From the NCBI GenBank assembly GCA_046075565.1, contig JBJTQJ010000031.1:1-64000 (forward strand): a DNA stretch of 64,000 nt, written 5' to 3'. Each line of letters starts with the position of its first letter. Within the stretch, counting starts at the first letter, position 1. A program made the translations under genes and the position numbers. Under the pieces are notes generated by a model, which had not been told where the DNA came from, did no database searches, and saw only the letters and a list, made by a program, of their open reading frames with translations. This document shows positions 38,834 to 62,722 of the stretch, in pieces. Origin of the DNA: Verrucomicrobiales bacterium (GTDB lineage: Bacteria; Verrucomicrobiota; Verrucomicrobiia; Verrucomicrobiales; SLCJ01).

Positions 38834-38838
38834 GGGAA

Positions 38839-40547: not shown

Positions 40548-40656
40548 GACCACAAATCACGCCGCGATGCGCCCGGTGGTCAAGCTCCCGGCGGGTCCGC
40601 GTTTTGGGCTCAAGGAAACCATCCGAAGGCGAATATCAGGATCAGGCAGACAAAAT

Positions 40657-42495: not shown

Positions 42496-43995
42496 TTATT
42501 CTTCTTCGCTGCCGCCGAGGGTGACGTTGATGTTGTAGGCGTTCTGGAGGTGGGCGTGGGCCTTGCTGGCTTGGCCGGATTTCGGGTAGCGTTTGCAGGT
42601 GAGCTGGAACGTGCGGATGGCACTTTCCTTGTCCTTGGCTTCCTCGTGGGTGAAACCGATTTGCAATGATGCCTCGGGGGCCGAAGCATCGACGACCTTG
42701 CACTGGTTGTAGAGCACGATGGCCTCGGCGGTTTCGCCGAGTTTGCGGTGGCAGGCGGCCATGCGGAAGTAACTGTCCGGGAACCGGTCGCTCTGACGGT
42801 AGGTGGCGATGGCTTTTTTCCAGTCGGCGAGCTTTTCATAACATCCGGCAATGGCCCAGAGGTATTCGCCGACGTTGTTTCCATCAAGATCGATCAGCTC
42901 GCGGTAGGCGGTGATGGCTTCGGCGGTTTTGCCTTCTTCCAGCAGCATCGCGATCAGATTCTTGCGTCCGGCGACCACATCCTTGAACTGACCGTAAATC
43001 CGGCGGGCCTCATCGCGTTTTTCCCGCTTTTTGCACCACTCCGCCATGCGTCCCAACAATCCGTCGTCGTTGCCAAAACGCTTACCGATTTCCTCATACA
43101 ATGCCCATGTCTCGGACGGCCGCCCGAGGGAGGAATTTAGATCGGCGGCGCGGTAAAGAAGGTCCTTCGCGATATCCGGTCGGGCGGCGCCCTCCGTGCG
43201 CAAGGTGTCGAGCAATTGGTCGGCGAGTTTGAGCGCGGCATTCCGTGTGCCGGGTTCCTTGAGCAGGTGTTCGACCGTTTTGGTGGACATGCCATAGACG
43301 GCATCGAAGAGCTCGGGTCCGCTGTAACTGGTGGCGAGGGCCTTTTTTCCATCGTCGAGCCGCTGGGCGAAAAAATGGAGTTGGGCGAGTTCCCGGCTGG
43401 CCTCCAAACAGGTCGCTTTGGAGGACTCCGTCCGTTTCACCTTGTAGGTGAGATCATTGAGCAACGAGAGTTTTTCCGCCTCATCCTGGTGGAGACGGGC
43501 ATAGTGGAGCAGGTCGGTCCGCGAACGGATGGCAATCTCGTGCTCAGGGTATTCCTTGACCAGAAAACGGAACGCGTCCTGCGCCTTCTTGACTTCGCCC
43601 ATCTTGCGGTAGGCATCGGCAATGCAGTAGGCGGCCAACGTGGCTTCGTGGGATTCCGGCCAGTAGTCAATGACCGATTGGAAGCCCTCGCGCAGGGCGG
43701 TTTCGGGCTTCTTGAGGTGCATCATGCTGTGGCTCCACATCAATTGCGCGTAGGGCGCGCCGGGGCTCTTTTCGTAAAGGGTCAGGAACTTCTCGTATTC
43801 GGCCAGCGCAGTCTTGAAGTCGCCATTGGTGTAGAGCTTTTCCGCGATCCGGAGCTGATAGCGCTCGACCTCTCGCATCTTTTCAAAGGTCGGCACCTGG
43901 ATCTGTTCGAGCGGGGATAGCCCGGCGAAAAGGCATGCGCCTTGCCCCATGCTCCACAGGGCGGTCAACAGGGCGATGACAATGGGCTTTTTCAT
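42496..43995 (-). CDS. Exported TPR protein (last gene of the envelope operon)
   Basis: Signal peptide MKKPIVIALL; repeated YPxS/WPES-type TPR turns; ATGA overlap with the upstream gene. Confidence 0.85.
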   Translation of the reverse strand: MKKPIVIALLTALWSMGQGACLFAGLSPLEQIQVPTFEKMREVERYQLRIAEKLYTNGDFKTALAEYEKFLTLYEKSPGAPYAQLMWSHSMMHLKKPETALREGFQSVIDYWPESHEATLAAYCIADAYRKMGEVKKAQDAFRFLVKEYPEHEIAIRSRTDLLHYARLHQDEAEKLSLLNDLTYKVKRTESSKATCLEASRELAQLHFFAQRLDDGKKALATSYSGPELFDAVYGMSTKTVEHLLKEPGTRNAALKLADQLLDTLRTEGAARPDIAKDLLYRAADLNSSLGRPSETWALYEEIGKRFGNDDGLLGRMAEWCKKREKRDEARRIYGQFKDVVAGRKNLIAMLLEEGKTAEAITAYRELIDLDGNNVGEYLWAIAGCYEKLADWKKAIATYRQSDRFPDSYFRMAACHRKLGETAEAIVLYNQCKVVDASAPEASLQIGFTHEEAKDKESAIRTFQLTCKRYPKSGQASKAHAHLQNAYNINVTLGGSEEE

Positions 43996-45410
43996 TTCGC
44001 GGTGGCGGCGAGCCATTTGTTGTATTCGGCGTGGGCGTAATGGATGATGTTCACTCCGAGTTGGTAGCAGGATTCCCAGACTTCGTGGGGCACGCCGGAA
44101 TGTCCGTCCGCCCACGCGTCGCCAATGTCGCCCGGATGATAATACACGGCAAGGCGCCCGTCCACCACCCAGCCGAGGGCATTGGAGCGACCATGGGGGG
44201 CGACAATCGGCAGGCGTGGCAATGGATAAGGCACGCGGTGGATTGGGTGATCGAGATAGACCGAGATGGGCTCCACCCGTGGGAGAATCTTCGCCATCAT
44301 GCCGACGAACTGCCCTTCCCAGCCGGAGCTGCCGCCATTGTCGCCGAACAACATGCCGTGGTGTTCCAGCAGGTAGGTGCGCAGGATTTTAATCTCGGCA
44401 TCGCTCACGTTGATGTTCCGCTGGCCGGTCATATAAACCATCGGCGGGCTCTTGCGGGGCGGGAAAGTTTTCAGCCGCGCGATGGCCATCGGCTCCGGGC
44501 GATCGCTGACCTGATGACCGAGGCGCACACCGTATTCGGTCAGCAGGTTGAGATCCGCCCCGCGGGCCATGTCTTGATCCCAATCTCCGCCGTCGTAGAT
44601 CAAACGGATGAAGCGGACCTTGCCGCGCGGCGAACCGCGTGAAAATCCCGCGCCCTCGCCCAGCCCCTGGCCGATCTGATAAAGGTGTTCGGTCACTTCC
44701 AGCACGTTGAGCTTCACGTCATCGATGGGCGGCGGATTGAACAAGATGCTGCTGTAGGGATTGATGACGTATTTCTTTTTGATGACCTTCTGGATTTGCA
44801 CCACCTGCTTGAGTTGCTTGACCTCGCCTCCGCCCAACGGGGACTCGTAGATGGAACAACCGGTGAGCCTCGTGAGGATGAGCAACACGCAGCCGAAGAG
44901 AAAGCTATAGGTGACGACGGTGAAAACCGACTGGCGGAGTTTGCGGCTGTTACGTCCGAAATACCATGCCGCCAATTGGCGCGGATCCCATACCCGCTTC
45001 GTGGTGTCCGGAGGTTTGGCGCGTTTGGTTTCCCTTTCAATCCACCACACCGCCCAGGCGAGACCGATGAAGAATGCAATCACCGTCCCGGCCGTGGTGA
45101 TGCCGTCTGCCATCCCGTAGGATGACCACAGCAATGGCAAATGGGCGGCGAGTTGCCAGAGCGGGAAGTAACATGCGGTCAAGACGGCGCGGAAAACGAT
45201 GGGCGGGCCGGACCGCCAGCGCCGCAGCCAATAGAAACAAACGGGAAGGGCCGCCACAAAGCCGATCGCTTGCCCACCGGGCGAAAAAAAATAGAACACG
45301 TGGGCATCGAGCCAAAACAAACACCAGATCACGGCGGCAATCCCCGTCAGCACGACCGGACGGCGGACGTGATGCGCCAAGAATTGCCTGAACCGGGATC
45401 CATCCATCAC
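43992..45410 (-). CDS. Polytopic membrane protein with C-terminal DUF4159 domain
   Basis: About 5 N-terminal TMs; RFIRLIYDGGDWDQ, PMVYMTG, LRTYLLEHHGMLFGD, HPIH, GDIGDAW, LGVNIIHYA. Confidence 0.8.
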   Translation of the reverse strand: MMDGSRFRQFLAHHVRRPVVLTGIAAVIWCLFWLDAHVFYFFSPGGQAIGFVAALPVCFYWLRRWRSGPPIVFRAVLTACYFPLWQLAAHLPLLWSSYGMADGITTAGTVIAFFIGLAWAVWWIERETKRAKPPDTTKRVWDPRQLAAWYFGRNSRKLRQSVFTVVTYSFLFGCVLLILTRLTGCSIYESPLGGGEVKQLKQVVQIQKVIKKKYVINPYSSILFNPPPIDDVKLNVLEVTEHLYQIGQGLGEGAGFSRGSPRGKVRFIRLIYDGGDWDQDMARGADLNLLTEYGVRLGHQVSDRPEPMAIARLKTFPPRKSPPMVYMTGQRNINVSDAEIKILRTYLLEHHGMLFGDNGGSSGWEGQFVGMMAKILPRVEPISVYLDHPIHRVPYPLPRLPIVAPHGRSNALGWVVDGRLAVYYHPGDIGDAWADGHSGVPHEVWESCYQLGVNIIHYAHAEYNKWLAATAK

Positions 45411-45892
45411 TCGAGGTCCTTCAGGAAATCATCGGTCCGGCTCTCAAGCGGGTTCTTATCCGGAGGAGCGGAAATTTCCCCGCCGATGCCGAGATTGGAA
45501 AGCGCATCGGCCGACGGGGCTGCGGGCTTGACTTCGGCGGGCGGGGTTTCGGGAGCGGCTGGAACCGTGGGCTGCGCCGGGGCTGCCGGGACGGTCGCGG
45601 CTGCGGGTTGCGCGGCGACTGGCGCTTCATCCTTGGCGAGGAAATAGGGGATGGCGGTGAAGATGAGAATCGTGCCCGCAATCAGGGCGGTGGAAAGACC
45701 AAGGCAGCGGACGAGTTGGCTACCGGCGACAATCCCGAGCATTTCCTGCGGGCTTTTGCCTTTGAGTTCGCGCAGGAAGGCCTGCAACTCGGCCATGGTC
45801 TCACGGGAGTTGTTCCGCATCTCGCGCATGTCCGCCGTGGCGCTGGCGAGGGCACTTCGTTTGGCGGCCGGTTTCTCGGGTTGGATTTTCAT
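45407..45892 (-). CDS. Single-pass membrane protein with Pro/Ala-rich linker
   Basis: Amphipathic N-terminus (ELQAFLRELKGKSPQEMLG), one TM, AAPAQP-rich stretch, C-terminal NPLESRTDDFLKDLE. Confidence 0.75.
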   Translation of the reverse strand: MKIQPEKPAAKRSALASATADMREMRNNSRETMAELQAFLRELKGKSPQEMLGIVAGSQLVRCLGLSTALIAGTILIFTAIPYFLAKDEAPVAAQPAAATVPAAPAQPTVPAAPETPPAEVKPAAPSADALSNLGIGGEISAPPDKNPLESRTDDFLKDLE

Positions 45893-45902
45893 GACGTGGG
45901 AT

Positions 45903-46304
45903 TCACTCTTCGGGTTCAAGGATGTGGATCAAATCACCGCCGGCTTCGGCGATGGCGGCGATGACCGGTTCAAAATGGGTGGCTTTGGCTTCGCGGTGGA
46001 CCTTGAGGAACACATGACGTTGTCCGGCTGGGGTATCGCCGAGGATGGCGTTCAGCGCGGCGGCCAGTTCGGCGGGAGTGGTCTCCTTGCCATCGAGATA
46101 GGTTTTGAATCCGGTGTCGATGGTGACACTGGCCCGCGGCGCGGCGACCATTTCCACCTCCTTGAGTTTGGCCGGTTGCCACTGGATGTGGCTGTCGTCC
46201 TGCGCCCGGGCGAGGATGACAAAGAAGATCAACAAAAGAAACGCGATGTCCCCCATGGCGAAGGTGGGAATCGACGCGGTCAATTGTTTGCGCGGAAGTT
46301 TCAT
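45903..46304 (-). CDS. ExbD/TolR family protein (second paralogue)
   Basis: IPTFAMGDIAFLLLIFFVI with the conserved TM Asp. Confidence 0.9.
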   Translation of the reverse strand: MKLPRKQLTASIPTFAMGDIAFLLLIFFVILARAQDDSHIQWQPAKLKEVEMVAAPRASVTIDTGFKTYLDGKETTPAELAAALNAILGDTPAGQRHVFLKVHREAKATHFEPVIAAIAEAGGDLIHILEPEE

Positions 46305-46723
46305 TCGACGTTGATGGTTTCCTTCGATTCAAGTTCCAGAGTCAGGATGCCGCCCGCTTGGTCAATGACCTGCGAGACCTGCATCCACCTCGGATAAGGA
46401 GTCTCCGGTGAACTTTTGACCACCACGATGCGGTCCTCCTCGCGGGACTTTTGTTTGAGTTCGGCGGCGAGGCGGGTAGCGAATTCCGGGAGTTGCAGCG
46501 GGTTGCCGTTGAGCACGATGCTGCTGGGCGTGATTGAGACCTCGAGGTTCTGGCTTTGGTCGCGCTTTTCGGCTTTGGCTTCGGTCTTCGGGAGGGTCTG
46601 CGGCACGCCGGTCTCCGGCTGCACGGCCGCGCAAACCAGGAAAAAGATGATCAAGGTAAAGGCGATGTCCGAGCTGGCGCAGCCCGGCGGATCGACCAAG
46701 AGGGTGCCGCGTTTCAGTTTCAT
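46301..46723 (-). CDS. ExbD/TolR family protein (first paralogue)
   Basis: ASSDIAFTLIIFFLV with the conserved TM Asp; VVVKSSPETPYPRWMQV periplasmic domain. Confidence 0.9.
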   Translation of the reverse strand: MKLKRGTLLVDPPGCASSDIAFTLIIFFLVCAAVQPETGVPQTLPKTEAKAEKRDQSQNLEVSITPSSIVLNGNPLQLPEFATRLAAELKQKSREEDRIVVVKSSPETPYPRWMQVSQVIDQAGGILTLELESKETINVE

Positions 46724-47439
46724 GGTTCGCGTGACTTGATGGTCATTCGGAGGGTGACAACTTCGATCATTTCGGCGGCGGAGCTTTCCACCTGCAGGAC
46801 GAACTCATTGATGATACCGGTGAAATAGTTGAAGGCCATGTAGGCCGGAATACCGACAATCAAGCCGAAGGCGGTGGTGAGCAGCGCGACCCGGATCCCG
46901 GCGGCAGCAGCCACCACGATGTTCTGCTGGCCGATATTCGCCTCGATGTCCCCGAAGGCGACGATCATGCCCTGCACGGTGCCGAGGAATCCGAGCATCG
47001 GCGCGACCGACGCGATGGTCGCGAGGATGGGCAGGTGTTTTTCCAAGGCGGCGACGATGTGCACACCGCAATTTTCCATGCTTTTGATCACCTGTTGTTC
47101 GAGTTGGGCGGGATCGTAGTCGAGGCGGCGCAGCACGAGATACTTGCGCAGGCCGTTGGAAAGCACGGCCGGCACGGGGCCGCGGGCGGCATCACACAGT
47201 TCGAGGGATTCCTCAATCCGATCTTCGGATAACAACGTGACAACCTGTTCGCGGAGCGCGGAAGAATCCGTTCCCAACATTTTCAGACTGCGGTAGCGTT
47301 CGATGACCACGGCAAGTCCGAGGATGAGCAGGAGGAGGATCGGCCACATGAAAATCCCGCCTTCCAGCAGGTGTTTCATGGCACCGCTTTCGAAAAATCC
47401 GGCGGCAAGGGTGGATGGAATGGGAAGATTCATGATCAT
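46720..47439 (-). CDS. MotA/TolQ/ExbB proton channel protein
   Basis: GGIFMWPI, LATIASVAPMLGFLGTVQGMI, GIRVALLTTAFGLIVGIP. Confidence 0.95.
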   Translation of the reverse strand: MIMNLPIPSTLAAGFFESGAMKHLLEGGIFMWPILLLLILGLAVVIERYRSLKMLGTDSSALREQVVTLLSEDRIEESLELCDAARGPVPAVLSNGLRKYLVLRRLDYDPAQLEQQVIKSMENCGVHIVAALEKHLPILATIASVAPMLGFLGTVQGMIVAFGDIEANIGQQNIVVAAAAGIRVALLTTAFGLIVGIPAYMAFNYFTGIINEFVLQVESSAAEMIEVVTLRMTIKSREP

Positions 47440-50400
47440 TCGTTGAGATTCGCCTCGCGGTCGAACTGGTTGAGCAACTCCGGCAGGGCGAGGCGGCCGC
47501 GAGAGTATTTGGCGGCGTCGCTTTCGGGGAAATCCCAACGGCAGCGGTTGTAGCGCCGGAACGCGTTCGGGATATCCTTGCCCATACGGTAGCTTTCCCC
47601 CGCCCAGAACAACGCCTGCGCGGTGAGTTCTTGTTCGGGATAACGTTTCACGAAGGCATCAAAGGCGGAACCGGCCTTGATGAATTCATCCATCTTGTAG
47701 TGGCATTGCCCGATGCGGAACGCCATCTTGGGCGCCCATTCGTGGTTGGGGAAACGTTCGACAAACTTGATGCCGACCGTGGCTGCGACAGCAAAGTCTT
47801 CTTTCACATAAAAATGCTCGTTGATACGCAGCATGACATTGGCGATCAGCGGGCTCTTCGGATAAGTGGCGGCGAGAGTCACGTAGGATTCGAGAGCTTC
47901 GTCCAACTCACCCGCCTCTTCATGGCATTGGCCGAGCTTGTAGAGTGCGTCGGGCGCGAGATTGTGTTCCGGATAGTTGCTCACGATGGATCCGTAGGCG
48001 GCGATGGCATCGTTCCAATCCTTGGTCTCCTGGGCGAATTGGCCCAACAGATAGGAAACCCGGGGTTTGTATTTCGGATCGGGATGATCCTCGTGGAGTT
48101 CGCGCAACACGCGCTTGCCGGCATTGAGGGCGGCCGTGGACTCCTCTTCGTTGTCGAGTTTCCGCTGGCCTTTGAAAAGCTCGAAGTAGCTTTCGGCAAT
48201 GTGGAAACGGGTTTGCGTGGCCAGCTCCTCGTCCTTGAAGACCTTGCTGAAGGCGGAGAATTGGCCATCGGTGCCGACTGCGAGGGGGATTTCGATTTTT
48301 AGGATGGTTTGTCCGTCCTCGGTGTGCGGGACGTTGTCGAGATAGCCGACGGTCAGCGCATCCCCGAAAAAGCACTCGATGCCGCCCTCGAAGTTGGCCG
48401 GCTTGGGGGCGGAGGAGGCGATGAGTGGAAACGCGCCGCTGAAAATCCCGCTGTGGCTGACGGTTTCCTCCAGTTCGACCGTTTCATCTTCTCCGGAGGA
48501 AGTCATGATCCTGACCATCGCCTTGTCGCGCTGGTCGGAAAGATCGCGATCCGGATCCTCCAAGAGGATGAAAAGTTTTTTCCCGACATACCCGGTGTCC
48601 ACATCCTCGGCATACCCGCTATCGGTGATGCGCAAGGTCGCGGCCGAACGGAGGGTGGCCTTGGCATCCAGGGTGGCCTCTTTTCCATCCGGGCGCGAGA
48701 CATCCTGGTAGCTCGCGGTCAGGGTATCGGCTCCGGTGACATTGAGCACGCGCATGCCGGGAAGCGCGGTGGCGGTGGCGCTGATAGCCGCGCCTTCAAC
48801 CGGCACCGTGGCCGGGCTTTCGATGCCTCCGAGCATCAGGGGAATCCGGCCAACAAACCGGCCTTCCAACAAGGCGGGATTGGGAGCATCATCCAGCGTG
48901 GCATTCGGCGGAGCGTGGTCACGAGAGAGGAAACAACGGATACGAGACTTGGTTCCCTGGGTGGTGGTGACATCGATGCTCACCTCACTGCGCGAGTTCT
49001 TCGCCTCGTCGGGGTCAATCACTTCGATGGTCAGGGGCAGCCGGTAATCCACCGTGGCCACGTGGTCTTTCGCGGGCGTGGTCATCACCGGAGAAAATGC
49101 TGGTGGTCCGCCGAAGGGCTTTTGACTTTCCACTATCTGGATGATGGCCTCGGTCGGTTCATTGATTAGAACCACGGCCTCACGCGGGGAGGCATGGCCG
49201 GGGAAAATATTCTGCCGGTCGGTGTAGCGCAGATAAAGCTTGTCGCCGCGCTTCACCGCGATTTTGCCTTCGGTTGCTGCATTGGCCGTTTCGATTTCGG
49301 CGGTGAAGACTCCCGTCGAGGGGCCGGTTTCGACGGCGGTAAGCTTGATGGGAGCATCGGCATTCACCTGCACTTCCACCTCCACCGAGTCGCGGTCGAG
49401 GCCGATGTCCAAATCAAAATCAGTCACTTCCGCGACGATGCGCTCGCCGGGTTCGAAGCGCAGTAGTTCCTTGCGGGAACCCTGGACCGAGCCGTCGCCG
49501 GCGCGGTTGAAACCATAGGTGATCGGAACCATGGTCCCGTTGTGATAGGTGGCCGTGAGGTCTTTGGTCAGCAGGCGGTTGCGCTGGCGTCCCCCGGCAG
49601 TGATTTCGTCCAGATAGGAGACCGTAACGGTGTCGCCCGGCGCGAGTTCAAGGATGTTGTTGCCGGCCAGCTCGAGCACATCCTCCGCCGGCGGAGTGTG
49701 GCGCTTGCCTCCGCCCTCAACCTGCACGTTGCTCACCGCGATCGATTCACCGCGGTATTCGAGGAATTCGAAATCGATGAAGCGCAGCGGGCGCGAAGGC
49801 ATCGAGAAACTCCATGTGTTGGCTTCCTTTTTGATTCCCGAGGACGATTGTGGGGCAGCTTCTGTTAGGCCGAGCACGGCGGCGACGTCAAAATCCGCCG
49901 CGCTGAAAGGTAGCATTTTCACCGCCGATGACTGGCGGCTTTCCCGGGCGCGCTGGGCTTCGACCGCCTTGGTGGCGGGGGTGGCGAGTGAAAAGATAGT
50001 CAACTCGTGCGAGCCTCGTCCAAGGAACACATCAACCGTGCGCCCATCCTCGCCAAGCGGAAGCTCCAACTTGCCGTCGAGCATTATGGCGGATTTTGCA
50101 CCAGTGACCCCGAGGCGCACGGCGCCATCGCGTTCCTGGACGAAGGAACCGGACCAGACGAGGAAGTGGGCGTCCGTGTTGTTTTCGGGAGCTTGCCATG
50201 CCAATCCATCGACCTTGCGCGTTTCCGTTGGCTCGGACTTGAGAACAAGTTCGGCGATCTGCTCCCAGGTGTAGGACTCCCGCAATTCCTTCGCGGGTAT
50301 CTTGTAAATGCGGAGCTGCATTTGCTTGTCGGCGAATGTGATCCGCTTTTCCGCCGGGGCGGGGGGGAATTCATCGAGAAGATACCAATACCTTCCGTCA

Positions 50401-53400: not shown

Positions 53401-54497
53401 GTTTTGGTGGGACTGCCGGCGATCACCTTGAGCAAGCCCCTGGCCGCGCGCTGAGCATCCTCACCGCACCAATTGACATAAGCCTGGGGCAGATCCTGGT
53501 TGTCTGGGTCGTTGAGCATCACCTCTTCGGCAAGGGCGAGGGCGAGCGAGCTTTCCTTGGCCTCGGCCGCTGTGTAGGCGGCGCGGGCAAGCTGCCCGTA
53601 GCGATCCTCGCGGCGGGGAAAAGCCGCCAGATACCGACGAGCCTCGGCTTCGATTTGCTTGGGCGCGATCTTCGCGGCGCCCATCGCGGAAATGAGGCTT
53701 CGGTGGGCCTCATCCCGACCGGGACCAATTGCCTTGCGGAATGAGTCGACGGCATTTGCATGCTGGCCGAGTTGACTTTCAAATTGGCCGGCGAGGAAGG
53801 CAATCTCGCGTTGCTGCGCTTCATCAGCCGGTGCCTGGCGGCGGACGAGATTCTTGGCGATGACCAAGCCTTCCGCCCATTGCTCCGAACGCCGGGCGGA
53901 TTTCATGCCTTGGATTCCGCATTCCGTCAGCGCTGCATCGGTTGAAAGTTTTTCCGTGAGTTCGATGGCCAGAGCAGTCGCTTGTTTCAGAGACGCGGGG
54001 TTGTTGGCCACAATGAAGAGATCCAGCGCCTGAATGCCATGACGGGCGGCGCCACCGTTCTTCCAGATATCGCGGCGGAGGGACGCGGCCATCGGACCGC
54101 GGGCGGTGCGTTCGCAGGCGGTGGCCAATCGATCGCGGGCCTCATTGGCCAGCGGGTCGTTGGGGAACATTTCCAGAAACTGCCTGCCGGTCGTGATGAC
54201 ATCCTCGTGGCGCGCGGTCGCGGCGAAGCCGTCCATGAGTTTGATGGTGGCCTCGGCGCGGCGGGGGTGGGCGGTCTGCGTGCGCGAGAACCTGCCGGCC
54301 GTGCGGATCAATCCGAAGGGTTGACCGTCCTGCCAATAGTGGTCCATGAGTTCCAGCATCATCCCGGCGGCGGCGGGCGAAATCTCGGCCGTCTCCTTAA
54401 GTCGGGCCTCAAGGTCAGCGGCCTTGTCGGCGGCTGCCGTGAAGGGCGTCCAACCTAACAGGAAGAGGGCAACCAACGATTGGGAGAAAGTTTTCAA
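47436..54497 (-). CDS. Giant (2353 aa) exported TPR/alpha-solenoid protein with Ig-like repeats and a discoidin-like insert
   Basis: Signal peptide; about 1080 aa helical N-region; beta-rich middle with DxDxD repeats and AIDHDPKTFW (F5/8-like); C-terminal TPRs; TTG start overlaps the upstream TGA. Confidence 0.85.
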   Translation of the reverse strand: MKTFSQSLVALFLLGWTPFTAAADKAADLEARLKETAEISPAAAGMMLELMDHYWQDGQPFGLIRTAGRFSRTQTAHPRRAEATIKLMDGFAATARHEDVITTGRQFLEMFPNDPLANEARDRLATACERTARGPMAASLRRDIWKNGGAARHGIQALDLFIVANNPASLKQATALAIELTEKLSTDAALTECGIQGMKSARRSEQWAEGLVIAKNLVRRQAPADEAQQREIAFLAGQFESQLGQHANAVDSFRKAIGPGRDEAHRSLISAMGAAKIAPKQIEAEARRYLAAFPRREDRYGQLARAAYTAAEAKESSLALALAEEVMLNDPDNQDLPQAYVNWCGEDAQRAARGLLKVIAGSPTKTSKLRAVLALDVYRDRLKDTANAREAAAAYLKSPPEEGRTEDIVKFLYESAPSDEAFRQDLATIVASSKAFPHVRGFHERLWKPEPSEKNRHREWQAARGEHQNDNIARLWRQTREDGGKAGQSCKELLQANPTPEQRRLLLARLAYVYRHHLGGKAKEGSAEHYQNLCREMPKDAEAASRWLEAADYSTPEMRVAAANHLLGIPPANVSSDNWVRLCATKNQAVTRKAIPWITASSKESDQPLSQSARLGDIMSELGMKTEAVAWWRSRMDLDPMDGESVSCALRVAATLKPEEAASFLKSRYEAKQRHNAAYAAEVANIAFRSGDIDGMEPILKSARTRADQSPFSPWNMGEWPARGWLEAARGSKDLPDEKKARVFRIVRDLKMGRLSAEAGMELMDKEPRTIDRLLNVQRLILMADPHHESWKRLYPFAQSALAKNDPSLAAAILNGLLNSIGAVGEAEKNDARALLRKAYSMAGGLGADIPSDSPLAPLLQVVLHLRLGETELAERAYQSQRALFDAHRNELPVELILFAAETHINKGGAGEHERAEDILRGWLLKFGEAQNTDIRDKARIQLLLARNYQQAGQYDIARAEFTTVLNLYKDQPEAIQARFGIGETFMAQKVYEQAAEIFTDLSENPLPSISIRAKFMLGVVALRQDQHQESRRIFLSVLENSPDADLANETLFNLAEVYGIEQRFLAQLETLRTVGRLGHESNVWHTPGTALSVIVQDPDLGISHGNTRIPVLIRTEPGDDREESFLTSGGAGRGIFLTEVPTLLGVAEAGDGTLQLTGGDTIVVDYPEDFKKQFQFEFLSNTRLRVASDGSLDVASSEIVDEDKKTFTENLKEEIAQPEVPVSRSVARPKDQVKPGNLIYIQAKDGDRDLTNAPDKVGIKLTSASGDEVQVEIAESSAHGGVFQGTVATGELPAGAKATDSALDHNALMAIDHDPKTFWRSEPDGSAPKSLTIDMKELRAVESVALSSPDTEQEAPVRMRVRGSHDGRYWYLLDEFPPAPAEKRITFADKQMQLRIYKIPAKELRESYTWEQIAELVLKSEPTETRKVDGLAWQAPENNTDAHFLVWSGSFVQERDGAVRLGVTGAKSAIMLDGKLELPLGEDGRTVDVFLGRGSHELTIFSLATPATKAVEAQRARESRQSSAVKMLPFSAADFDVAAVLGLTEAAPQSSSGIKKEANTWSFSMPSRPLRFIDFEFLEYRGESIAVSNVQVEGGGKRHTPPAEDVLELAGNNILELAPGDTVTVSYLDEITAGGRQRNRLLTKDLTATYHNGTMVPITYGFNRAGDGSVQGSRKELLRFEPGERIVAEVTDFDLDIGLDRDSVEVEVQVNADAPIKLTAVETGPSTGVFTAEIETANAATEGKIAVKRGDKLYLRYTDRQNIFPGHASPREAVVLINEPTEAIIQIVESQKPFGGPPAFSPVMTTPAKDHVATVDYRLPLTIEVIDPDEAKNSRSEVSIDVTTTQGTKSRIRCFLSRDHAPPNATLDDAPNPALLEGRFVGRIPLMLGGIESPATVPVEGAAISATATALPGMRVLNVTGADTLTASYQDVSRPDGKEATLDAKATLRSAATLRITDSGYAEDVDTGYVGKKLFILLEDPDRDLSDQRDKAMVRIMTSSGEDETVELEETVSHSGIFSGAFPLIASSAPKPANFEGGIECFFGDALTVGYLDNVPHTEDGQTILKIEIPLAVGTDGQFSAFSKVFKDEELATQTRFHIAESYFELFKGQRKLDNEEESTAALNAGKRVLRELHEDHPDPKYKPRVSYLLGQFAQETKDWNDAIAAYGSIVSNYPEHNLAPDALYKLGQCHEEAGELDEALESYVTLAATYPKSPLIANVMLRINEHFYVKEDFAVAATVGIKFVERFPNHEWAPKMAFRIGQCHYKMDEFIKAGSAFDAFVKRYPEQELTAQALFWAGESYRMGKDIPNAFRRYNRCRWDFPESDAAKYSRGRLALPELLNQFDREANLNE

Positions 54498-56677
54498 AAT
54501 CCTCCTTTCTTGAGGGCTTCGACAATCTTGGCGGCTTCCGCCGCGATCTCGCTTTCGGGGAAATCATGGATGAGTTGTTCGAAGCGCCTGCGGGCCTCCG
54601 GTTTGCGGTCGAGTTTGTAAAGGCAGCGGCCGTAGTTGAAGAGGATCACATCGAGGAAATTCGCATCGGGATGATCCGAGAGCACGTTTTCAAAAACATC
54701 GGTGGCACGCAGATAGTCTTCCTTCTGATAGTAGAACGCCGCCATCTTGGCGACCGCATCACCGATGCGCCCGGAATCCGGAAATTGCTCGTAAACCTTC
54801 TGGTAGGCGAGGAAGGCGCTTTCGTAAAGCTGAGCGGATTTGGAGGCCTCGGCCTTGGTTGCCATGGCCTCGTAGCACTCGCCGATGTGGAATTGCGCTT
54901 CGCCGCGCAGCGGGCTGTTCGTCAGCTTGGTGATGCTCGTGTATAGGCTGATCGCCCGGATGTGGTTCTCGCGCTTCCGCTCGACATGGGCTTGCTGGAG
55001 CATCGCCTCGTCAACGAAACTGCTCGCCGGAAACTCGGCCAGCAGGCGTTGGCTCATTCCCAAAGCGAGGTCGAGTTTGTCCATCGCGAAATAGATGCGC
55101 CAAAGCTGGACATAGGTTTCTTCCAGCGGTTTTCCGCCGGCTTTGCGGGCTTCACCGAGGATTTCCTCGCAGACGGCGAGTGCTTCCCCGTATTTGAGAT
55201 CGGCTTTGGCATTGAGGCCGAATTCCTTGTAGTGATTGCCGACTTCCGTAAGGGCGGATGCGGTGCGGATTCGGGTATTGAGCCTTAATTGCTCGTCGGA
55301 AATATCGGTCCGGGTGACCCTGACCTCGCCGAGATTGCCCTCGATGATGCCGGCTTGGGCGGTGCGAATTTGCGGGCTATCGGTCAGGTTTTTCTCATCG
55401 AGATAGACCAGACGCATGATTTCCCCGGGTTCACCGGCAAGGCTTCCATCGGCTGCGCCTGGGCGAAGGGGAAATGCTTGGCGAAAGACACCGGCTTGAT
55501 CGGTTTCGCGCAGCACCACCGGGAAACTCCGCACCACCACCAGCGGGTCGATTCGATCCTTGAGCTGGCCGCCATCTGCGGCTTCGGCCAGTTCCCCGGC
55601 CGCCACCCGGCGGGCGATTTCCTCGTCGATTTCATCCGGAGTCTTGCGACGGAAAAACTGCGCTTCGGCATTGAGCGAATCAGCGCCCGGGCTGATGTCG
55701 TGATCGGCATCGATGACCTGGAGGTGAACCGGCTTGCCGAGAACAACCGCTTGGATCTCCTGTTGGTAGGAACCATCGAGAATGCGGGCGATGCCATTGC
55801 CGAAAACCTCGACCGTCTTCAAGCGCTTCTTGTTGGTCGATTTGTCGGCAGCGTGGGCGTCGACATAGGTGACTTCCACAGAATCGCCGCCCCGGAGATC
55901 GAGAATGCCATTGCCCGGGGTGGCAGGTCCGAGCGTGGTGGCAATCGCACCGAGGGCGATCCGGGCATTGCGCCCGGCGAGATCGCAGGCCACGATTTCC
56001 TCGTCGCCACTTTTCGTGAGGCAGCGGATTTTTATCTGCTCACCGGGCTGGAGAATGGCAAAATCGAGATCGTCGATCTTGATATACAACCGTTTGCCCG
56101 CTTCGAGTTTCTCGAGCTTTGCGTCCTCACCGGCCCGGGCGGTGCCGACTTTTTCGAGCGCCTCAATGGCGCGGCTGTAATGGCCGAGTTTGAAGTGGCC
56201 GAGGCCGATATAATAGTAGGCTTCATTGACGTGTGTCGAAGTGGGGAACCGCTCGATGACATCACGCATGATGGTGAAGCACTTGCCATAGTTGGCGGCC
56301 TCGTAATAGCAGGTGCCGGTATGCACAAAGGCGTAGGCGCGGCGTTCATCGTTGCCATTGGCTTCCACGGCGGCGGCTTCGTAGTGAAGACGGGCTTTGT
56401 CGTATTCGCGGAGTTCAAGACGCAAGTGATCGGCCAAGCGGAGATGTGCGTCGAAGCGGGTCTCACTGCCCGGGTAGCGTTCAATGACCGACTCCCAGAT
56501 CTCGAGAGCCTTTTCGTTCTCACCGACTTCGAGGCGCGCATCACCGGCCTGCAACAACTTGCGGGCGGCGCGATCCTCGATGATGGAGCCACGTTCGGCT
56601 TTCTCCGCTTCCTGGGCGGGGAGGACGGCGGTCAGCGCGAGGATGATGGTCAGGACGCGGGCGGTTGGGAAAGCCAT
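54494..56677 (-). CDS. Exported TPR protein with two Ig-like repeats
   Basis: Signal peptide; TPRs at both ends (YPGS, FPTS, FPDS, FPES); central LYIKIDDLD and LQVIDADHD repeats. Confidence 0.85.
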   Translation of the reverse strand: MAFPTARVLTIILALTAVLPAQEAEKAERGSIIEDRAARKLLQAGDARLEVGENEKALEIWESVIERYPGSETRFDAHLRLADHLRLELREYDKARLHYEAAAVEANGNDERRAYAFVHTGTCYYEAANYGKCFTIMRDVIERFPTSTHVNEAYYYIGLGHFKLGHYSRAIEALEKVGTARAGEDAKLEKLEAGKRLYIKIDDLDFAILQPGEQIKIRCLTKSGDEEIVACDLAGRNARIALGAIATTLGPATPGNGILDLRGGDSVEVTYVDAHAADKSTNKKRLKTVEVFGNGIARILDGSYQQEIQAVVLGKPVHLQVIDADHDISPGADSLNAEAQFFRRKTPDEIDEEIARRVAAGELAEAADGGQLKDRIDPLVVVRSFPVVLRETDQAGVFRQAFPLRPGAADGSLAGEPGEIMRLVYLDEKNLTDSPQIRTAQAGIIEGNLGEVRVTRTDISDEQLRLNTRIRTASALTEVGNHYKEFGLNAKADLKYGEALAVCEEILGEARKAGGKPLEETYVQLWRIYFAMDKLDLALGMSQRLLAEFPASSFVDEAMLQQAHVERKRENHIRAISLYTSITKLTNSPLRGEAQFHIGECYEAMATKAEASKSAQLYESAFLAYQKVYEQFPDSGRIGDAVAKMAAFYYQKEDYLRATDVFENVLSDHPDANFLDVILFNYGRCLYKLDRKPEARRRFEQLIHDFPESEIAAEAAKIVEALKKGGF

Positions 56678-56682
56678 GAGGG

Positions 56683-57939
56683 TCAAGCAAGCAGTTCGTG
56701 AATCGGATTGGCTTCCTTGCGGACGAGGCGCATCGGCCGCCCCTGCGGAGTGATGATTTCCTTGGCGAGATCAATGCCGAGCGCTTTGCAGATGGTGGCG
56801 TGGAGATCCGCCACGTTGACCGGACGTTCGGCTGGTTCCATGCCATCGGCATCGGAGGCACCGAGGATGCTGCCGCCTTTGATGCCGCCACCGGCCATCA
56901 GACAACTGAAGCAGCGCGCCCAGTGATCGCGACCCGCGGCCTCGTTGACCCGGGGCGTGCGGCCGAATTCGCTGAGGACCACGACGAGGGTTTTGTCCAG
57001 CATGCCATTTGCCTTGAGGTCGGAAAGCAGCGATGCGATTCCGGGATCCATGACCGCGCCGTGGGCGCGCATCGCTTCGAAGATATTGCCGTGGTTATCG
57101 AATCCTCCGCGGTTGATCTGCACAAACCGCACGCCTTTCTCCACCAAGCGGCGGGCGAGCAAGGCACCGCGCCCGAATTCCGTGTTGCCATAACGTTCGA
57201 TGGTTTGCGGATTTTCCTCCTCAAGTTCAAAGGCCTTGAGCGCCGGACTTTCCATCAGCGCGACCGCATCACGGAGGGCGATTTCGGAAGCCTTCATGGC
57301 GTCCGCTCCGGTGAGACCGGATGTGCGGGCATTCATGCGTTCGAGGATTTGCAGGCGCTGCATGCCGCGCGCGTGGTTGATCCCTTCGGGAAACGCGAGA
57401 TACGGATCCTTTTCGCCGGGGCGACCGACGAAGTAGGCTTCGCATTGTTGGCCGAGGTATCCGGAGCGGGCGGCTTGGCCGCTGATGCTGACAAACGCGG
57501 GTAGATCGCCGAGCGGTTCGCGTTCATGCACGACAATCGATCCGAGTCCCGGGTGGAGGATGTTGGGTGATTGGGCGAAGCCTGTCTGCAACTCGTATTG
57601 GGCGCGGCCGTGATCGCCATTGGTGCCGGCGATTGAACGGATCAGCGCGGCATGGTGCATTTGTTTGGCGAGCTGGGGAAAAATTTCCGAAATTTCCATG
57701 CCATCGACCGAGGTTTTGATCGGCTGGAACTCACCTTGGACCGGACGCCCGGGTTTCGGGTCCCACGTATCGAGATGGCTCATGCCGCCGTCGTTCCAGA
57801 AAAGGATGACGTGCTCGGCCGTGGCCCTGCCAGTCCCCGCGCGGGCCAACAACCCGCTGATAGGCATACCCAGCAGCGACGCGCTGAACATCTTCAGCAT
57901 ACGGCGGCGGGTGGATTGGTAATCGGTGCAAGCGTTCAT
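56683..57939 (-). CDS. DUF1501 domain protein with Tat signal
   Basis: TRRRML; GGMSHLDTWDPKP, LLARRLVEKGVRFV, FDNHG, SEFGRTP, GRDHW, AGGGIKGG. Confidence 0.93.
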   Translation of the reverse strand: MNACTDYQSTRRRMLKMFSASLLGMPISGLLARAGTGRATAEHVILFWNDGGMSHLDTWDPKPGRPVQGEFQPIKTSVDGMEISEIFPQLAKQMHHAALIRSIAGTNGDHGRAQYELQTGFAQSPNILHPGLGSIVVHEREPLGDLPAFVSISGQAARSGYLGQQCEAYFVGRPGEKDPYLAFPEGINHARGMQRLQILERMNARTSGLTGADAMKASEIALRDAVALMESPALKAFELEEENPQTIERYGNTEFGRGALLARRLVEKGVRFVQINRGGFDNHGNIFEAMRAHGAVMDPGIASLLSDLKANGMLDKTLVVVLSEFGRTPRVNEAAGRDHWARCFSCLMAGGGIKGGSILGASDADGMEPAERPVNVADLHATICKALGIDLAKEIITPQGRPMRLVRKEANPIHELLA

Positions 57940-57957
57940 GATTGTGCGAATTCGGGT

Positions 57958-60390
57958 TTAAGGCAGATAACGGAACTCGTGGCTGTTGAGCAAAGCCCAG
58001 CGCAGGTCGGCCATACCATCTTCCCGGTTGTTCGCCAGCAATGCCAAGGCTTCGGCTTTTTCTTCCGCACTGGGCAGGCGGGTCAGGATTTCCTGATAGG
58101 CCCAGTCGATGGCCTTGTCGGGATCCTTTTGCAGGATGGCGTGGAGCGGTTCGAGCGGGCCGACCCGCGAGGCTTCATGGGTCATGCGGCCATTGAGCAT
58201 CATGAGCTGCTGGCGCAGCGATGGGGACGCGTCGCGGAATTCCCCGAGGGCCGCGCGTTCCGGTTGGCCGAACACGCGCAGGAAGTGGGCCGGCGGAGCC
58301 GGAGTGGCCATGTGCATTGCGCTGTCGAACCGCGGATTGTCATCCACGGTCTCCACGACGGTCTTGGTTTCGAATTTCGTCGAGTTACCCGCGTTTTGCC
58401 TTTGCATGGCCAACATGCGTTCGGCTTCGATTTGTTGATCGGACATGGCGCGCATGGACTCAAGTTCCGATCGTTCTTCTTTGGTCAGAATGGCATTAAA
58501 ATCCAGTTTCAGGGTGGATTCGAGATCGTAGCCATCATCGCGCATCGGCGGTGCCGCCGGGGCTTCCGCCATTGCCGGTTCCTTGGCGGGAGTTGTTTGC
58601 CCTTTGATGGGAACGCGCACCTCACGCGTGACTTGTTTGGCGTTGGCTCCCGCCGGCCATTTGTGGTCGCTGAGGTGACCGGCCACGATCACGCTGTCGA
58701 AGAGGACCTCGCCAATCATCCGCCGGGTGGGAGCGGCGGAGAAGTTTTTCTCGCTCTCCTCGCGAACTAACACCGGCGTCGAAGCGGGCAGGGCCGTGCG
58801 GCGGTAGGCATCGGACAAAGTGATGATGCGGATGAGATGACGGAAATCATAACCACTGGCCACGAATTCGCGGGAGAGGAAATCCAAGGCCGTCGGGTTG
58901 CGCGGAAGATTGTAGTCGGAAAAATTATCGAGTGACTCGACAAACCCGCGCCCGATGAGTTCCGCCCACACGCGGTTGACAAATGCCTTGGCGAAATAGT
59001 CGTTGCGCGGATCAGTGATCAGGCTGGCCAGTTGGTCGCGCAATTCGCTGGTCCGGTAGAGGTCGCGATGCACGTCGAGCGCCCGGCTTTCGCGTTGCGC
59101 TTCTTCGAGCACGACATCGCGCGGTTTTCCGGGAGCGGGTTGGACGCCATCAAGCAAGGCATCGAGTTCGGCGTTTTCTTTTCCGGAGGACGCGGACTTG
59201 CTCTTTTCCTCGCGTGCTTTCAGGAATCGCACGAGATGGGCGGGTGGTGTCTCCGGTTCGTCGAAGCGGATGGGGAACCGCGGTTTGACCGGACTGCGGG
59301 TCCCGCCATTGGCTTTGTCTTCGGGTGGCCAGAGCACGGTCATTTCCTGACCCTCGGTGGTGTAAACCATACCCTGCTGCCGCCCCTGCACCTTGCGGGT
59401 CTTGCCGAAAAATGCGGCGAACTCATAAAAGTCCCGCTGTTTCCAATCATCGAATGGATGGTCATGGCACATCGCACAGCCGATTTGGACACCCATAAAG
59501 ACCTGCGCCGATGAAGCGGCCAGTTCCATCGGGTTCACATCGTCACCGAGGATGAAGCCGACCGCCGGATTCGCATTGGCCCGGCCCGACGCGCTGATCA
59601 ATTCGCGCACCATTACATCATAGGGCTTTTCCTTTTCAATCGATCCGTGCACGTAGGCGAGCAGTTGGTTTCCACCAGTGACATTCGAGCGTATCCGCAG
59701 CGTATCCGCCATAAAGACCGTCCATCGATCGGAGAATCGCGGATGGGCGAGGAGTTGGTCGATGAGTTTTTCGCGTTGGTTGCCATCCATGCCTTTGAAA
59801 GCTTTCAACTCGTCCATGGTCGGGATGCGTCCGATCAGATCGATGGTGGTCCGGCGGAGAAAGGCGGAGTCGCTGATCGTCCGGGTGGTGATCAACTCTT
59901 TCCCGGCGTTTTCGCGTTTGAGGATGTCGTCCAGGATGGCGGCGGCTTCGGCGGCGGATGCGGGCGGTTTTGCAGGAATGGAGACCCGTTTGGGCGGTTC
60001 GGGTTTGCGCTCGGTCAGGATCACTCCGGATGGCCAATAGGCGCCGGCGCGCACCCACTCTTCGAGCAGTTTCACTTCGGCTGGCTCTAAGGCTTTCCCT
60101 TCGTCAGGCATGACGCCTTGGTCGATGGGGCGGAGAAGGACACGGACCAGCATCTCGCTTTCTTCGGGTTTGCCGGGGACAAGGGCCTCGGCGGTGTCGC
60201 CGCCCTCGAGCACTGCCGCATGGGTGTCCATGCGCAAGCCACCCTTGCTTTGCTCCGCATTGTGGCAACGAACACAATTCTGTTCGAGGATCGGCTGGAC
60301 CAGCGTCACGAAGTCCGGCCCGGTGGCACGCGCAAAAAACGGACTGGCTAGGACCACGCAGGCCCCGATGGCTGGTATATGGGTGCGCAC
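57958..60390 (-). CDS. Planctomycete cytochrome c plus DUF1549 plus DUF1553 protein
   Basis: VQPILEQNCVRCH...KGGLRMD...MP...WVRAGA (PSCyt1); FLRRTTIDLIGRIPT, CAMCHDHPFDDW (DUF1549); FVNRVWAELIGRG, WALLNSHEF (DUF1553). Confidence 0.93.
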   Translation of the reverse strand: MRTHIPAIGACVVLASPFFARATGPDFVTLVQPILEQNCVRCHNAEQSKGGLRMDTHAAVLEGGDTAEALVPGKPEESEMLVRVLLRPIDQGVMPDEGKALEPAEVKLLEEWVRAGAYWPSGVILTERKPEPPKRVSIPAKPPASAAEAAAILDDILKRENAGKELITTRTISDSAFLRRTTIDLIGRIPTMDELKAFKGMDGNQREKLIDQLLAHPRFSDRWTVFMADTLRIRSNVTGGNQLLAYVHGSIEKEKPYDVMVRELISASGRANANPAVGFILGDDVNPMELAASSAQVFMGVQIGCAMCHDHPFDDWKQRDFYEFAAFFGKTRKVQGRQQGMVYTTEGQEMTVLWPPEDKANGGTRSPVKPRFPIRFDEPETPPAHLVRFLKAREEKSKSASSGKENAELDALLDGVQPAPGKPRDVVLEEAQRESRALDVHRDLYRTSELRDQLASLITDPRNDYFAKAFVNRVWAELIGRGFVESLDNFSDYNLPRNPTALDFLSREFVASGYDFRHLIRIITLSDAYRRTALPASTPVLVREESEKNFSAAPTRRMIGEVLFDSVIVAGHLSDHKWPAGANAKQVTREVRVPIKGQTTPAKEPAMAEAPAAPPMRDDGYDLESTLKLDFNAILTKEERSELESMRAMSDQQIEAERMLAMQRQNAGNSTKFETKTVVETVDDNPRFDSAMHMATPAPPAHFLRVFGQPERAALGEFRDASPSLRQQLMMLNGRMTHEASRVGPLEPLHAILQKDPDKAIDWAYQEILTRLPSAEEKAEALALLANNREDGMADLRWALLNSHEFRYLP

Positions 60391-60591
60391 GGGGGAATTT
60401 AATTAAACCCATTTAATGACATGACGGGGTGGATTGGTCAAGATTATTTCACGGCAATCACACCAATGTTTTGACTGTCCCCCGTCGCCGGCAAAATTCC
60501 CGCCTGAGACCACCCCATTTCTTCAGTTTTCCGACCCCCTGCTTTTGGGGTGGAAGTTTCGGGGGTCGCGGGCTAAGCTTCCCCCAAGACC

Positions 60592-61425
60592 ATGTCCATT
60601 TTCAAAAAACCTCCCGTTCCGACGGGATTGCAACGCCGCTCCGACCTGCCCGAAGGTCTCTGGCACAAGTGCCCGTCCTGTGGAGAGGTCATCCATGAGC
60701 TGGAATTGCGGCAGGAACTCCACGTCTGCCGTCATTGTGGCCAACATTTCCTCATGCCCTCAGACGAGCGGGCATTCAGCCTCGCCGACGCCGGAACTTG
60801 GGAAGAAATCGACGCCGGTTTGGTTTCCCAAAACCCGCTCGGATTCCACCAGTATGAGGACAAAGTGGCACGGGCCCGCCTGGCCAGCGGCATGAATGAC
60901 GCCATCCGCACTGGGCGGTGCCGCCTCGACGGGCGACCGGCCGTGCTCGGAATCATGGATTTCCGCTTCTTCGCCGGCTCGATGGGTTCGGTCGTCGGGG
61001 AAAAAATCACCCGAGCTGTCGAGATGGCGACGCGGGAAAAATGTCCGGTCATTCTTTTCAGTGCCTCGGGTGGAGCCCGTATGCAAGAGGGCATGTTCTC
61101 GCTCATGCAGATGGCCAAGACCTCGGGGGCGCTGGCCCGCCACCACCAAGCCGGTCAACTCTTCATTTCCGTGCTCACCCATCCGACCACCGGAGGGGTC
61201 ACGGCCTCCTTCGCGACCCTCGGGGATGTGATCCTCGCCGAACCGCATTGTATGATCGGCTTTGCCGGTCCGCGGGTGGTGAAAGAAACAACCCACCAGA
61301 ATCTTCCCGAAGGATTCCAGACCGCCGAGTTCATGCTCCAGCACGGACTCGTTGATCGAATCGTGCAACGCCGCGACATGCGCGCCGAACTCAGCCGCCT
61401 CGTCGCGCTCACCGCGCGGGCGTGA
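60592..61425 (+). CDS. accD: Acetyl-CoA carboxylase carboxyltransferase beta subunit
   Basis: LWHKCPSC...CRHC zinc finger, GSMGSVVGEKI, SGGARMQEG, PTTGGVTASFA. Confidence 0.97.
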   Translation: MSIFKKPPVPTGLQRRSDLPEGLWHKCPSCGEVIHELELRQELHVCRHCGQHFLMPSDERAFSLADAGTWEEIDAGLVSQNPLGFHQYEDKVARARLASGMNDAIRTGRCRLDGRPAVLGIMDFRFFAGSMGSVVGEKITRAVEMATREKCPVILFSASGGARMQEGMFSLMQMAKTSGALARHHQAGQLFISVLTHPTTGGVTASFATLGDVILAEPHCMIGFAGPRVVKETTHQNLPEGFQTAEFMLQHGLVDRIVQRRDMRAELSRLVALTARA

Positions 61426-61450
61426 ACCGCGCATCCGGCGCGCGCCTGAA

Positions 61451-62674: not shown

Positions 62675-62722
62675 GTAAGTGCCAGGTTTTGACAGAAATC
62701 CTGCTTATGGAAGATTTCTATC

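Follow-up and report, generated by a model that had tools for sequence, protein, structure and literature searches.

The closest described relatives of the locus analysed here are loci encoding von Willebrand factor A (vWA) force transducers in the Planctomycetes-Verrucomicrobia-Chlamydiae (PVC) group. These loci, arranged as tetratricopeptide repeat (TPR)-tolQ-tolR-tolR-transducer, occur in Planctomycetes and Verrucomicrobia, Tichowtungia among them, and the accessible part of the paper describing them gives their function as unknown and reports no mutants (Mol Biol Evol 2025, PMC12204202). A cluster of similar build lies at positions 42496–60390 of contig JBJTQJ010000031.1 from a Verrucomicrobiales bacterium (assembly GCA_046075565.1), of which positions 1 to 64,000 were analysed and are referred to as the window. 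This region is filled by ten minus-strand open reading frames (ORFs), named g1 to g10, so that the ten co-directional genes proposed in an initial annotation of the DNA are borne out by the ORF calls. The evidence set out below makes it about an even call that they constitute one conserved operon for an envelope machine driven by the proton-motive force, which is neither Ton nor Tol-Pal.

As far as the accessible description of the vWA loci goes, the resemblance lies in the gene order, with TPR, tolQ-like and two heterologous tolR-like genes and with anchored proteins, and in g9, which likewise combines a transmembrane helix (TMH), a linker and a globular C-terminal domain that is not of the TonB type. 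The differences, which set the two families apart by their descriptions and not by their sequences, so that these families may overlap, are that the C-terminal domain of g9 is DUF4159, with a class-I-amidotransferase-like fold and no VWA match in Pfam, that g9 and g8 of the window lack the conserved TMH His, which only a paralogous module has, and that the second anchored protein, g8, bears a peptide tip and no domain. The accessible text mentions neither DUF4159 nor DUF1501 nor PSCyt (PMC12204202).

Pairs of DUF1501 and PSCyt/PSD proteins form a second group of described relatives. They are specific to the PVC group and their function is given as unknown, with no motor mentioned in the accessible parts of the papers (Kamneva et al. 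2012, PMC3542564; He et al. 2017, PMC5615132); what is accessible of the 2012 text contains no ExbD, TolQ or TPR (PMC3542564). With PSCyt1, PSCyt2 and PSD1 beside a Tat-signal (twin-arginine translocation) DUF1501 protein, g1 and g2 are a typical pair of this kind, but they differ in being one orthogroup tied to a motor operon. Literature searches returned no paper combining DUF1501 with ExbB, PSCyt with TolQ or Haloferula with ExbD, and found DUF4159 in a Pfam database paper only. The earlier statement that no named system with this composition was known has to be qualified to that extent: judging from the accessible sources, similar PVC loci have been described (PMC12204202), whereas a link with DUF1501/PSCyt was not found in print.

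With Tol-Pal and its CpoB/YbgF protein, the cluster shares a stator of the TolQ/TolR type, a long spacer in an anchored protein and TPR_6-type repeats, but it lacks a TolA C-terminal domain, TolB and Pal, has two ExbD paralogs and TPR proteins of 499–2353 aa, and is rare. Many Ton operons follow the order ExbB-ExbD-ExbD-TonB. The cluster has the same order with an anchored protein in the last place, as well as an ExbB/ExbD-family stator with the TMH Asp, but no TonB C-terminal domain, TMH S-x3-H or receptor. The Agl-Glt gliding machinery of Myxococcus combines Glt outer-membrane and TonB-like components under the control of MglA/B; one TolQ-like subunit, two different TolR-like subunits and large TPR proteins are common to both, whereas Pfam searches of the cluster revealed no Glt outer-membrane proteins, TonB-like GltG/J, MglA/B or AglZ. 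None of the ten proteins matched TonB_C, TonB_2, the TolA C-terminal domain, plug, barrel, TolB, PD40 or OmpA in Pfam and NCBIfam, in line with the annotated lack of a TonB C-terminal domain, beta-barrel, TolB or Pal. Its classification as neither canonical Ton nor Tol-Pal also stands, since TonB, TolB, Pal and barrel are missing from the cluster and separate Ton-like and Tol-like loci lie elsewhere in the genome.

Gene order, distribution and the cytochrome/DUF1501 pair

The six stop/start overlaps listed in the initial annotation are all present (ATGA, GTGA or TTGA), and the remaining junctions are under 20 nt as it had stated, the largest being 18 nt. Its gene list is correct in content, but DUF4159 is not the last gene: this domain belongs to g9, and g10 encodes a third TPR protein. 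Export or TMH signals can be read from the sequence in all ten products, as had been claimed, with signal-peptide-like N-termini in g1, g3, g4 and g10. Because the accD-like gene upstream is divergent, the ORFs 3′ of position 42496 are not conserved together with the cluster and the gene order recurs in two phyla, the unit is considered to be more than a product of chance.

An alignment of g9 relatives, searched in one genome per species, gave at least 444 confirmed places, and the 80 best of these were used together with flanks of 10 kb. Among these 80 loci, 25 are labelled Planctomycetota and 53 Verrucomicrobiota, although many are contigs of metagenome-assembled genomes (MAGs) with sometimes doubtful taxon labels. 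Counting only loci with enough flank, the window order and the same strand, g9 relatives are accompanied by g5 in 56 of 61 loci, by g6 in 63 of 65 and by g7 in 66 of 68; g4 is found upstream of g5 in 47 of 55, and g10 follows g9 within 1.5 kb in 69 of 74. For g8, tblastn gave 67 of 72 loci, and several of the misses are due to tblastn itself, ORFs of the same design being present in L080, L091 and L097.

For g1 to g3, which fall beyond the 10 kb flanks, the whole genomes behind the loci were searched (11 genomes). The stretch from g1 to g9/g10 is contiguous in seven of them (G029, G032 to G036 and G039), including two planctomycete-labelled MAGs, one of these a Rubripirellula, and g1-g2-g3 are adjacent in nine. 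Synteny across Verrucomicrobiota and Planctomycetota is thus conserved, both in these seven genomes and in the g4–g10 order of most of the 80 loci.

The module is rare. At E ≤ 1e-60, g9 orthologs occur in 2 of 151 Verrucomicrobiota and 2 of 151 Planctomycetota genomes, sampled evenly and with the centre genome included in each count; full-length orthologs are present in 4 of 31 close relatives and in none of six genomes of one family (f2). Because of this rarity, together with the paralogous copy in the same genome, the module appears to be accessory rather than housekeeping. Among the carriers, Haloferula helveola is cultured and has a complete genome (g9 is HAHE_31820 and g1 is HAHE_31900), which makes genetics feasible; Rubritalea profundi is another carrier in culture.

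A quick tree of the g9 core was built with SH-aLRT support from 81 rows, leaving out the partial loci L060 and L065; it was drawn with a midpoint root and with two paralogous proteins as the far group. All 25 planctomycete-labelled rows fall on one side of a branch with an SH-aLRT of 92 (not starred). From this tree of sequences it is concluded that the module would not often have been shuffled between phyla, while donor and direction of transfer are not drawn from it. Some cluster contigs are labelled Vicinamibacteria, Akkermansia muciniphila or Prosthecobacter debontii (L034, L024, L049, L072, L022 and others); these labels look like binning or naming errors, because their g9 proteins group with those of Akkermansiaceae-type MAGs.

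At the head of the cluster, CXXCH occurs twice in g1 (residues 39 and 305), which fits its label as a dihaem protein. The Pfam scores of the pair are 135.5 bits for DUF1549 (PF07583), 148.3 for DUF1553 (PF07587) and 360.7 for DUF1501 (PF07394), and the N-terminus of g2 carries an RRR motif. Orthologs of g1 show 46–75% identity and adjoin g2 in 9 of the 11 genomes; those of planctomycetes measure 707–720 aa, and their matches begin at query residue 144–153, leaving PSCyt1 unmatched. A single close g2 ortholog per genome is found in 9 of the 11, with 62–89% identity (62–63% when genomes labelled Verrucomicrobiota and Planctomycetota are compared), while other DUF1501 paralogs reach no more than 42%, and this ortholog always stands between the g1 and g3 orthologs. 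The two other genomes, the planctomycete MAGs G037 and G040, have g3–g10 and no g2 ortholog at E ≤ 1e-85, and both encode a short PSCyt2/PSD1 protein and then a DUF1501 protein directly after g10, on the same strand. A PSCyt2/PSD1 gene also follows g10 in L096, where the contig then ends, and a longer PSCyt1-PSCyt2-LamG-PSD1 plus DUF1501 pair does so in L082 and L097. Since such a pair is found either as g1-g2 or after g10, a cytochrome/DUF1501 pair travels with the motor module, at either end of it. Its inclusion in the unit, as first annotated, is upheld by this substitution and by the specificity of the orthogroup.

The structure model of g1 is poor (mean predicted local distance difference test, pLDDT, of 62.4), and at this quality Foldseek gave no PDB match at E ≤ 0.001; by sequence, neither g1 nor g2 nor the profile of g9 orthologs matched any PDB entry. 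One planctomycete MAG holds a GH95 fucosidase-type gene (L085:18391-20727) some 2.4 kb 3′ of its post-g10 PSCyt2/PSD1 and DUF1501 pair.

Stator, candidate transducers and TPR proteins

Against Pfam PF01618, g5 scores 92.4 bits (cut-off 22.9) and has three hydrophobic segments, while g6 and g7 score 54.7 and 53.3 bits against PF02472 (cut-off 25.4) and are 32% identical to each other. Asp19 in the TMH is conserved in all 65 aligned sequences of g6 and in 67 of the 68 of g7. Family membership and this conserved ExbD Asp suggest that the motor uses the proton-motive force.

The place taken by TonB in Ton operons is occupied by two anchored proteins, both predicted to consist of an N-in TMH and a periplasmic part. 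In g9, five helices and a short Lys-rich linker are predicted to precede the DUF4159 domain (PF13709, 106 bits against a cut-off of 25.9). This domain is probably periplasmic, because Lys/Arg-rich loops precede the last helix, as judged by the positive-inside rule. The AF2 model has a mean pLDDT of 75.8, with residues 260–470 at 80–98 per 10-residue block and mostly above 90. The modelled domain is best matched by PDB 4i66, a protein from structural genomics that is uncharacterised (VIA Z 23.6 and rmsd 1.8 over 186 residues; Foldseek E 1.4e-9), and shows weaker similarity (VIA Z 8–9.6) to class-I glutamine amidotransferases, ThuA-like proteins and the IFT52 N-terminal domain. A check for vWA domains gave only DUF4159 in Pfam, and no vWA entry among the Foldseek matches listed or the top 50 VIA matches. 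Across the family, the polytopic part before the last helix ranges from none to more than 1400 residues, and the conserved core comprises a cytoplasmic motif, the last TMH, the linker and DUF4159.

An alignment of 35 g9 orthologs has 80 invariant columns, which include Asp357 in a GDNGG motif, His406, His425-Pro-Gly-Asp428, Asp431 and Trp433. The catalytic triad of class I glutamine amidotransferases is Cys-His-Glu. No Cys of the domain is invariant in this alignment, so the triad is not conserved in g9.

The smaller protein, g8, matched no Pfam or NCBIfam family. Its alignment with 32 relatives reveals a conserved cytoplasmic N-terminal part, a single TMH, a variable spacer rich in Pro, Ala and Glu (about 50–90 residues) and a conserved C-terminal peptide whose acidic end reads DDFLKDLE in the window. 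ORFs of this type were gathered from 68 loci, and some relatives hold an N-terminal GYF_2 domain; in the ESM Atlas the family carries an automatic "SecG" label only, without Pfam. Another conserved C-terminal peptide, an acidic tail of the TLGG-x-EEE type, ends g10 (window positions 42499–42540) and is seen in both phyla.

In TonB and TolA the anchor TMH is marked by S-x3-H, the His being conserved. The paralogous module, which is present in this genome and in G003, has a TonB-like S-x3-H in the final TMH of its DUF4159 protein, and the TMH of its small protein also holds a His. The presence of these TonB-like features in the paralogous module supports g8 and g9 as stator-coupled transducers by descent. 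The same anchor signature is cited in the accessible text on the vWA loci (PMC12204202). Between the g8 family and the small protein from the paralogous module, hhalign gave a probability of 28.6%, and a predicted complex of g8, g9 (residues 125–472) and g10 (24–499) scored 0.00.

The copy of the paralogous module in this genome fills contig C8 (1–5269) with the end of a giant TPR gene followed by ExbB, ExbD, ExbD, a small TMH/Pro-rich protein and a polytopic DUF4159 protein. The whole module was duplicated, because g5, g6 and g7 each match best the gene at the same position in it. A third DUF4159 fragment starts contig C85 (1–204), and the assembly probably breaks inside the repeated giant genes. 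In G003 the paralogous module is full, with two giant proteins (at least 1777 aa and 2470 aa), and a gene for a 23S rRNA intervening-sequence protein (four-helix-bundle family) lies between its ExbB and first ExbD genes (L019:14036-14416).

Among the TPR proteins, g3 is conserved upstream of g4 in relatives. The giant g4, with a TTG start preceded by an AGGAGG motif, holds N-terminal TPR-like repeats, an F5/8 type C domain at residues 1302–1416 and a C-terminal TPR_6/CpoB-like block at about 2130–2330, and for its middle the ESM Atlas offered leads to TPR and F5/8C only, at 0.86.

Several other stators are encoded in this genome, which measures 3.9 Mb and is 100% complete by marker genes. It contains eleven MotA/ExbB-family matches against two TonB-dependent barrels and three TonB-type proteins, so most of its stators must be without a canonical partner. 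Contig C119 holds a receptor, TonB and ExbB together, and a TolQ-like protein, ExbD, a TonB_2 protein and a PD40 propeller form a Tol-like locus on C108. On C46 (23141–29708, locus L111), a 649-aa fusion of DUF2341, LamG and MotA/ExbB stands between a ShlB-type transporter and a TonB_2 protein, which is followed by a Porin_5 protein. A further ExbB-ExbD pair on C10 (37200–39655; L117:4004-6456) adjoins a Ras/Arf-like GTPase and a Roadblock/LC7 protein, resembling the MglA/MglB pairing of gliding bacteria.

Proposed machine and competing explanations

The proposed machine is read as a third kind of 5:2-motor system, one with transducers of its own. In it, g5 and the two different ExbD paralogs g6 and g7 would build an inner-membrane stator, presumably of the 5:2 type, whose output would pass through the anchored g8 and g9 in place of TonB or TolA. 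The output by g9 would comprise its TMH, the short linker rich in Lys and, in the periplasm, a DUF4159 head of class-I-amidotransferase-like fold, and that by g8 its TMH, the Pro/Ala-rich spacer and the acidic C-terminal peptide, which could dock in a TPR groove. The TPR proteins g3, g10 and the 2353-aa g4, which has a discoidin-type domain, might provide a periplasmic or outer-envelope scaffold through TPR contacts, and the enzymatic or cargo part served by the machine could be g1, the haem protein, together with g2, the DUF1501 protein exported by Tat. Most likely, the machine would use energy to capture, move or process a macromolecule that is either imported or part of the envelope. This could be a glycan, as hinted by the discoidin-type domain of g4 and by lectin-like inserts found in related pairs.

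Several observations weigh against this proposal. The cluster encodes no outer-membrane component. The TMH of g8 has no His, and the g9 orthogroup has Tyr-Ser/Thr at the place of the TonB/TolA His, so that a TonB-like docking on the stator is not supported by motif; moreover, g8 has no globular C-terminal domain, and g9 could be an enzyme or a regulator, since the DUF4159 fold has no known function. Two MAGs split the cluster, with g1–g3 apart from g4–g10 in G031 and g1–g5 apart from g6–g10 in G038. Finally, no DUF1501 pair was found within 13 kb upstream of the paralogous module, which indicates that the pair is not needed by every such module.

It is conceivable, but rather doubtful, that the cluster represents a third class of membrane-to-periplasm power coupling beside Ton and Tol, in which a 5:2 motor with DUF4159-headed and peptide-tipped transducers and a TPR scaffold would serve a PSCyt/PSD and DUF1501 client. 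If so, it would give the first functional handle on the DUF1501 and PSCyt/PSD families, and at least some of their pairs would be energised periplasmic polymer-handling machines and not free enzymes. These families are among the most expanded ones of unknown function in Planctomycetes and Verrucomicrobia, and the conserved g1/g2 pair, tied to a motor, offers a concrete entry point into their function. The catalogue of outputs of 5:2 stators would also be widened by a DUF4159 head or a short acidic peptide, lacking the His thought to be needed for docking.

The best surviving alternative, although an unlikely one, is a Tol-like system for envelope integrity or division, with a TolQR-type motor, CpoB-like TPR proteins and g8 as a minimal TolA. 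The best NCBIfam matches are indeed TolQ for g5 and TolR for g6, and g5 is nearer TolQ (TIGR02796, 100.9 bits) than ExbB (TIGR02797, 64.1), but both scores for g5 are far under the equivalog cut-offs (221 and 206, respectively), as is that for TolR. The YbgF/CpoB TPR model TIGR02795 (cut-off 90.1) is exceeded by g3 (99.5, in four stretches), g4 (144.1) and g10 (91.6), although these scores are sums over two to four stretches in proteins of 730, 2353 and 539 aa (the last being the long-ORF form of g10). CpoB/YbgF proteins have about 260 aa and an N-terminal coiled coil, and the full-length CpoB model NF008068 remains far below its cut-off of 383. The layout of g8, with a TMH and a long spacer, is like that of TolA, and no TolB_N domain was found in the genome; however, the cluster has no Pal/OmpA-like gene, the Tol-like locus on C108 is separate, and both the rarity and the paralogous copy of the module misfit a housekeeping role.

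A lower probability is assigned to two independent neighbours, with g1–g3 as a DUF1549/1553 and DUF1501 (plus TPR) enzyme module and g4–g10 as a motor module. The separation of g1–g3 and g4–g10 on different contigs in G031 would fit this possibility, as would the paralogous modules on C8 and L019, which have no such pair within reach. DUF1501 pairs are also numerous, with 14 DUF1501 matches in this genome and 10–78 (E ≤ 1e-20) in relatives; even so, with 14–27 first-look candidates in 6–7 Mb, adjacency by chance is unlikely. It also argues for one unit that a specific orthogroup stays beside g3 across two phyla, that g2/g3 and g3/g4 overlap or abut, and that the genomes without a g2 ortholog carry another pair directly after g10.

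A motor for surface motility or adhesion of the Agl-Glt kind, in which TolQ and two TolR proteins drive large TPR proteins, is less probable still. Its appeal comes from AglRQS with GltD/GltE, which likewise combines TolQ, two heterologous TolR and large TPR proteins, and from the related PVC loci, which are suggested for gliding in the accessible part of their description (PMC12204202). Against it, the Pfam search of the ten proteins found no outer-membrane barrel, TonB-like Glt protein or MglA/MglB match, and the ExbB-ExbD locus beside a Ras-like GTPase and a Roadblock protein on C10 is a separate one. The named relatives Haloferula, Luteolibacter, Roseibacillus and Rubritalea are described as non-motile, which also counts against gliding.

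An ordinary Ton system with scattered genes, for which g5–g7 would be a spare ExbB-ExbD stator serving a distant TonB and receptors, is very improbable: the genome does have a TonB_C protein and two TonB-dependent barrels elsewhere, but that TonB adjoins its own ExbB and receptor on C119, eleven stator genes face two barrels, and the cluster keeps its own anchored proteins at the TonB position across two phyla. Each TonB-type protein has a stator of its own next to it (on C119, C108 and C46). The window stator is therefore not an orphan that serves a TonB encoded far away, and the cluster is distinct from the Ton and Tol systems, in agreement with the initial annotation. The PADLOC defence models, which cover 5:2-motor types such as Zorya, gave no family for nine of the proteins and one weak TPR match for g3 (E 8.7e-4).

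Coordinates and surroundings of the cluster

Features of the cluster, with positions in the window
Feature	Coordinates	Strand	Description	Basis
g1	57958..60390	-	PSCyt1 + PSCyt2 (DUF1549) + PSD1 (DUF1553), 810 aa, exported	Pfam above cut-off
g2	56683..57939	-	DUF1501, 418 aa, twin-arginine N-terminus	Pfam 360.7 bits
g3	54494..56686	-	TPR, 730 aa, exported	Pfam TPR families
g4	47436..54497	-	2353 aa, TPR-like repeats + F5/8 type C + TPR_6/CpoB-like block	Pfam, NCBIfam
g5	46720..47439	-	MotA/ExbB/TolQ-family stator subunit, 239 aa, 3 TMH	Pfam
g6	46301..46723	-	ExbD/TolR paralog 1, 140 aa, 1 TMH	Pfam ExbD
g7	45903..46304	-	ExbD/TolR paralog 2, 133 aa, 1 TMH	Pfam ExbD
g8	45407..45892	-	small anchored protein, 1 TMH, candidate transducer/tether	alignment; no Pfam/NCBIfam family
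g9	43992..45410	-	5-helix polytopic anchor + DUF4159 domain, 472 aa, candidate transducer	Pfam, AF2
g10	42496..43995	-	TPR, 499 aa, exported, conserved acidic C-terminus	Pfam TPR families
Intergenic region towards divergent accD	60391..60591	.	likely operon promoter region	position

For g8, the ATG at 45892 is more likely to be the start than that of the longer ORF form (45407–45919). No match to a consensus sigma-70 promoter was found in 60391–60591, and a scan of the intergenic gaps for promoters and terminators yielded nothing, promoter-like sites being no more frequent than in shuffled sequences. The sequencing runs listed were four of DNA, all from one freshwater study and one of them possibly the source, and none of RNA. 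The divergent accD-like ORF lies on the plus strand at 60592–61425. Both flanks are of a housekeeping character: the upstream one (60592–63911) consists of this accD, a Mur-ligase-family (folC-like) gene and a His_biosynth-family gene, and the downstream one (37913–40553) of a miaA-like IPP transferase and a thiD-like kinase.

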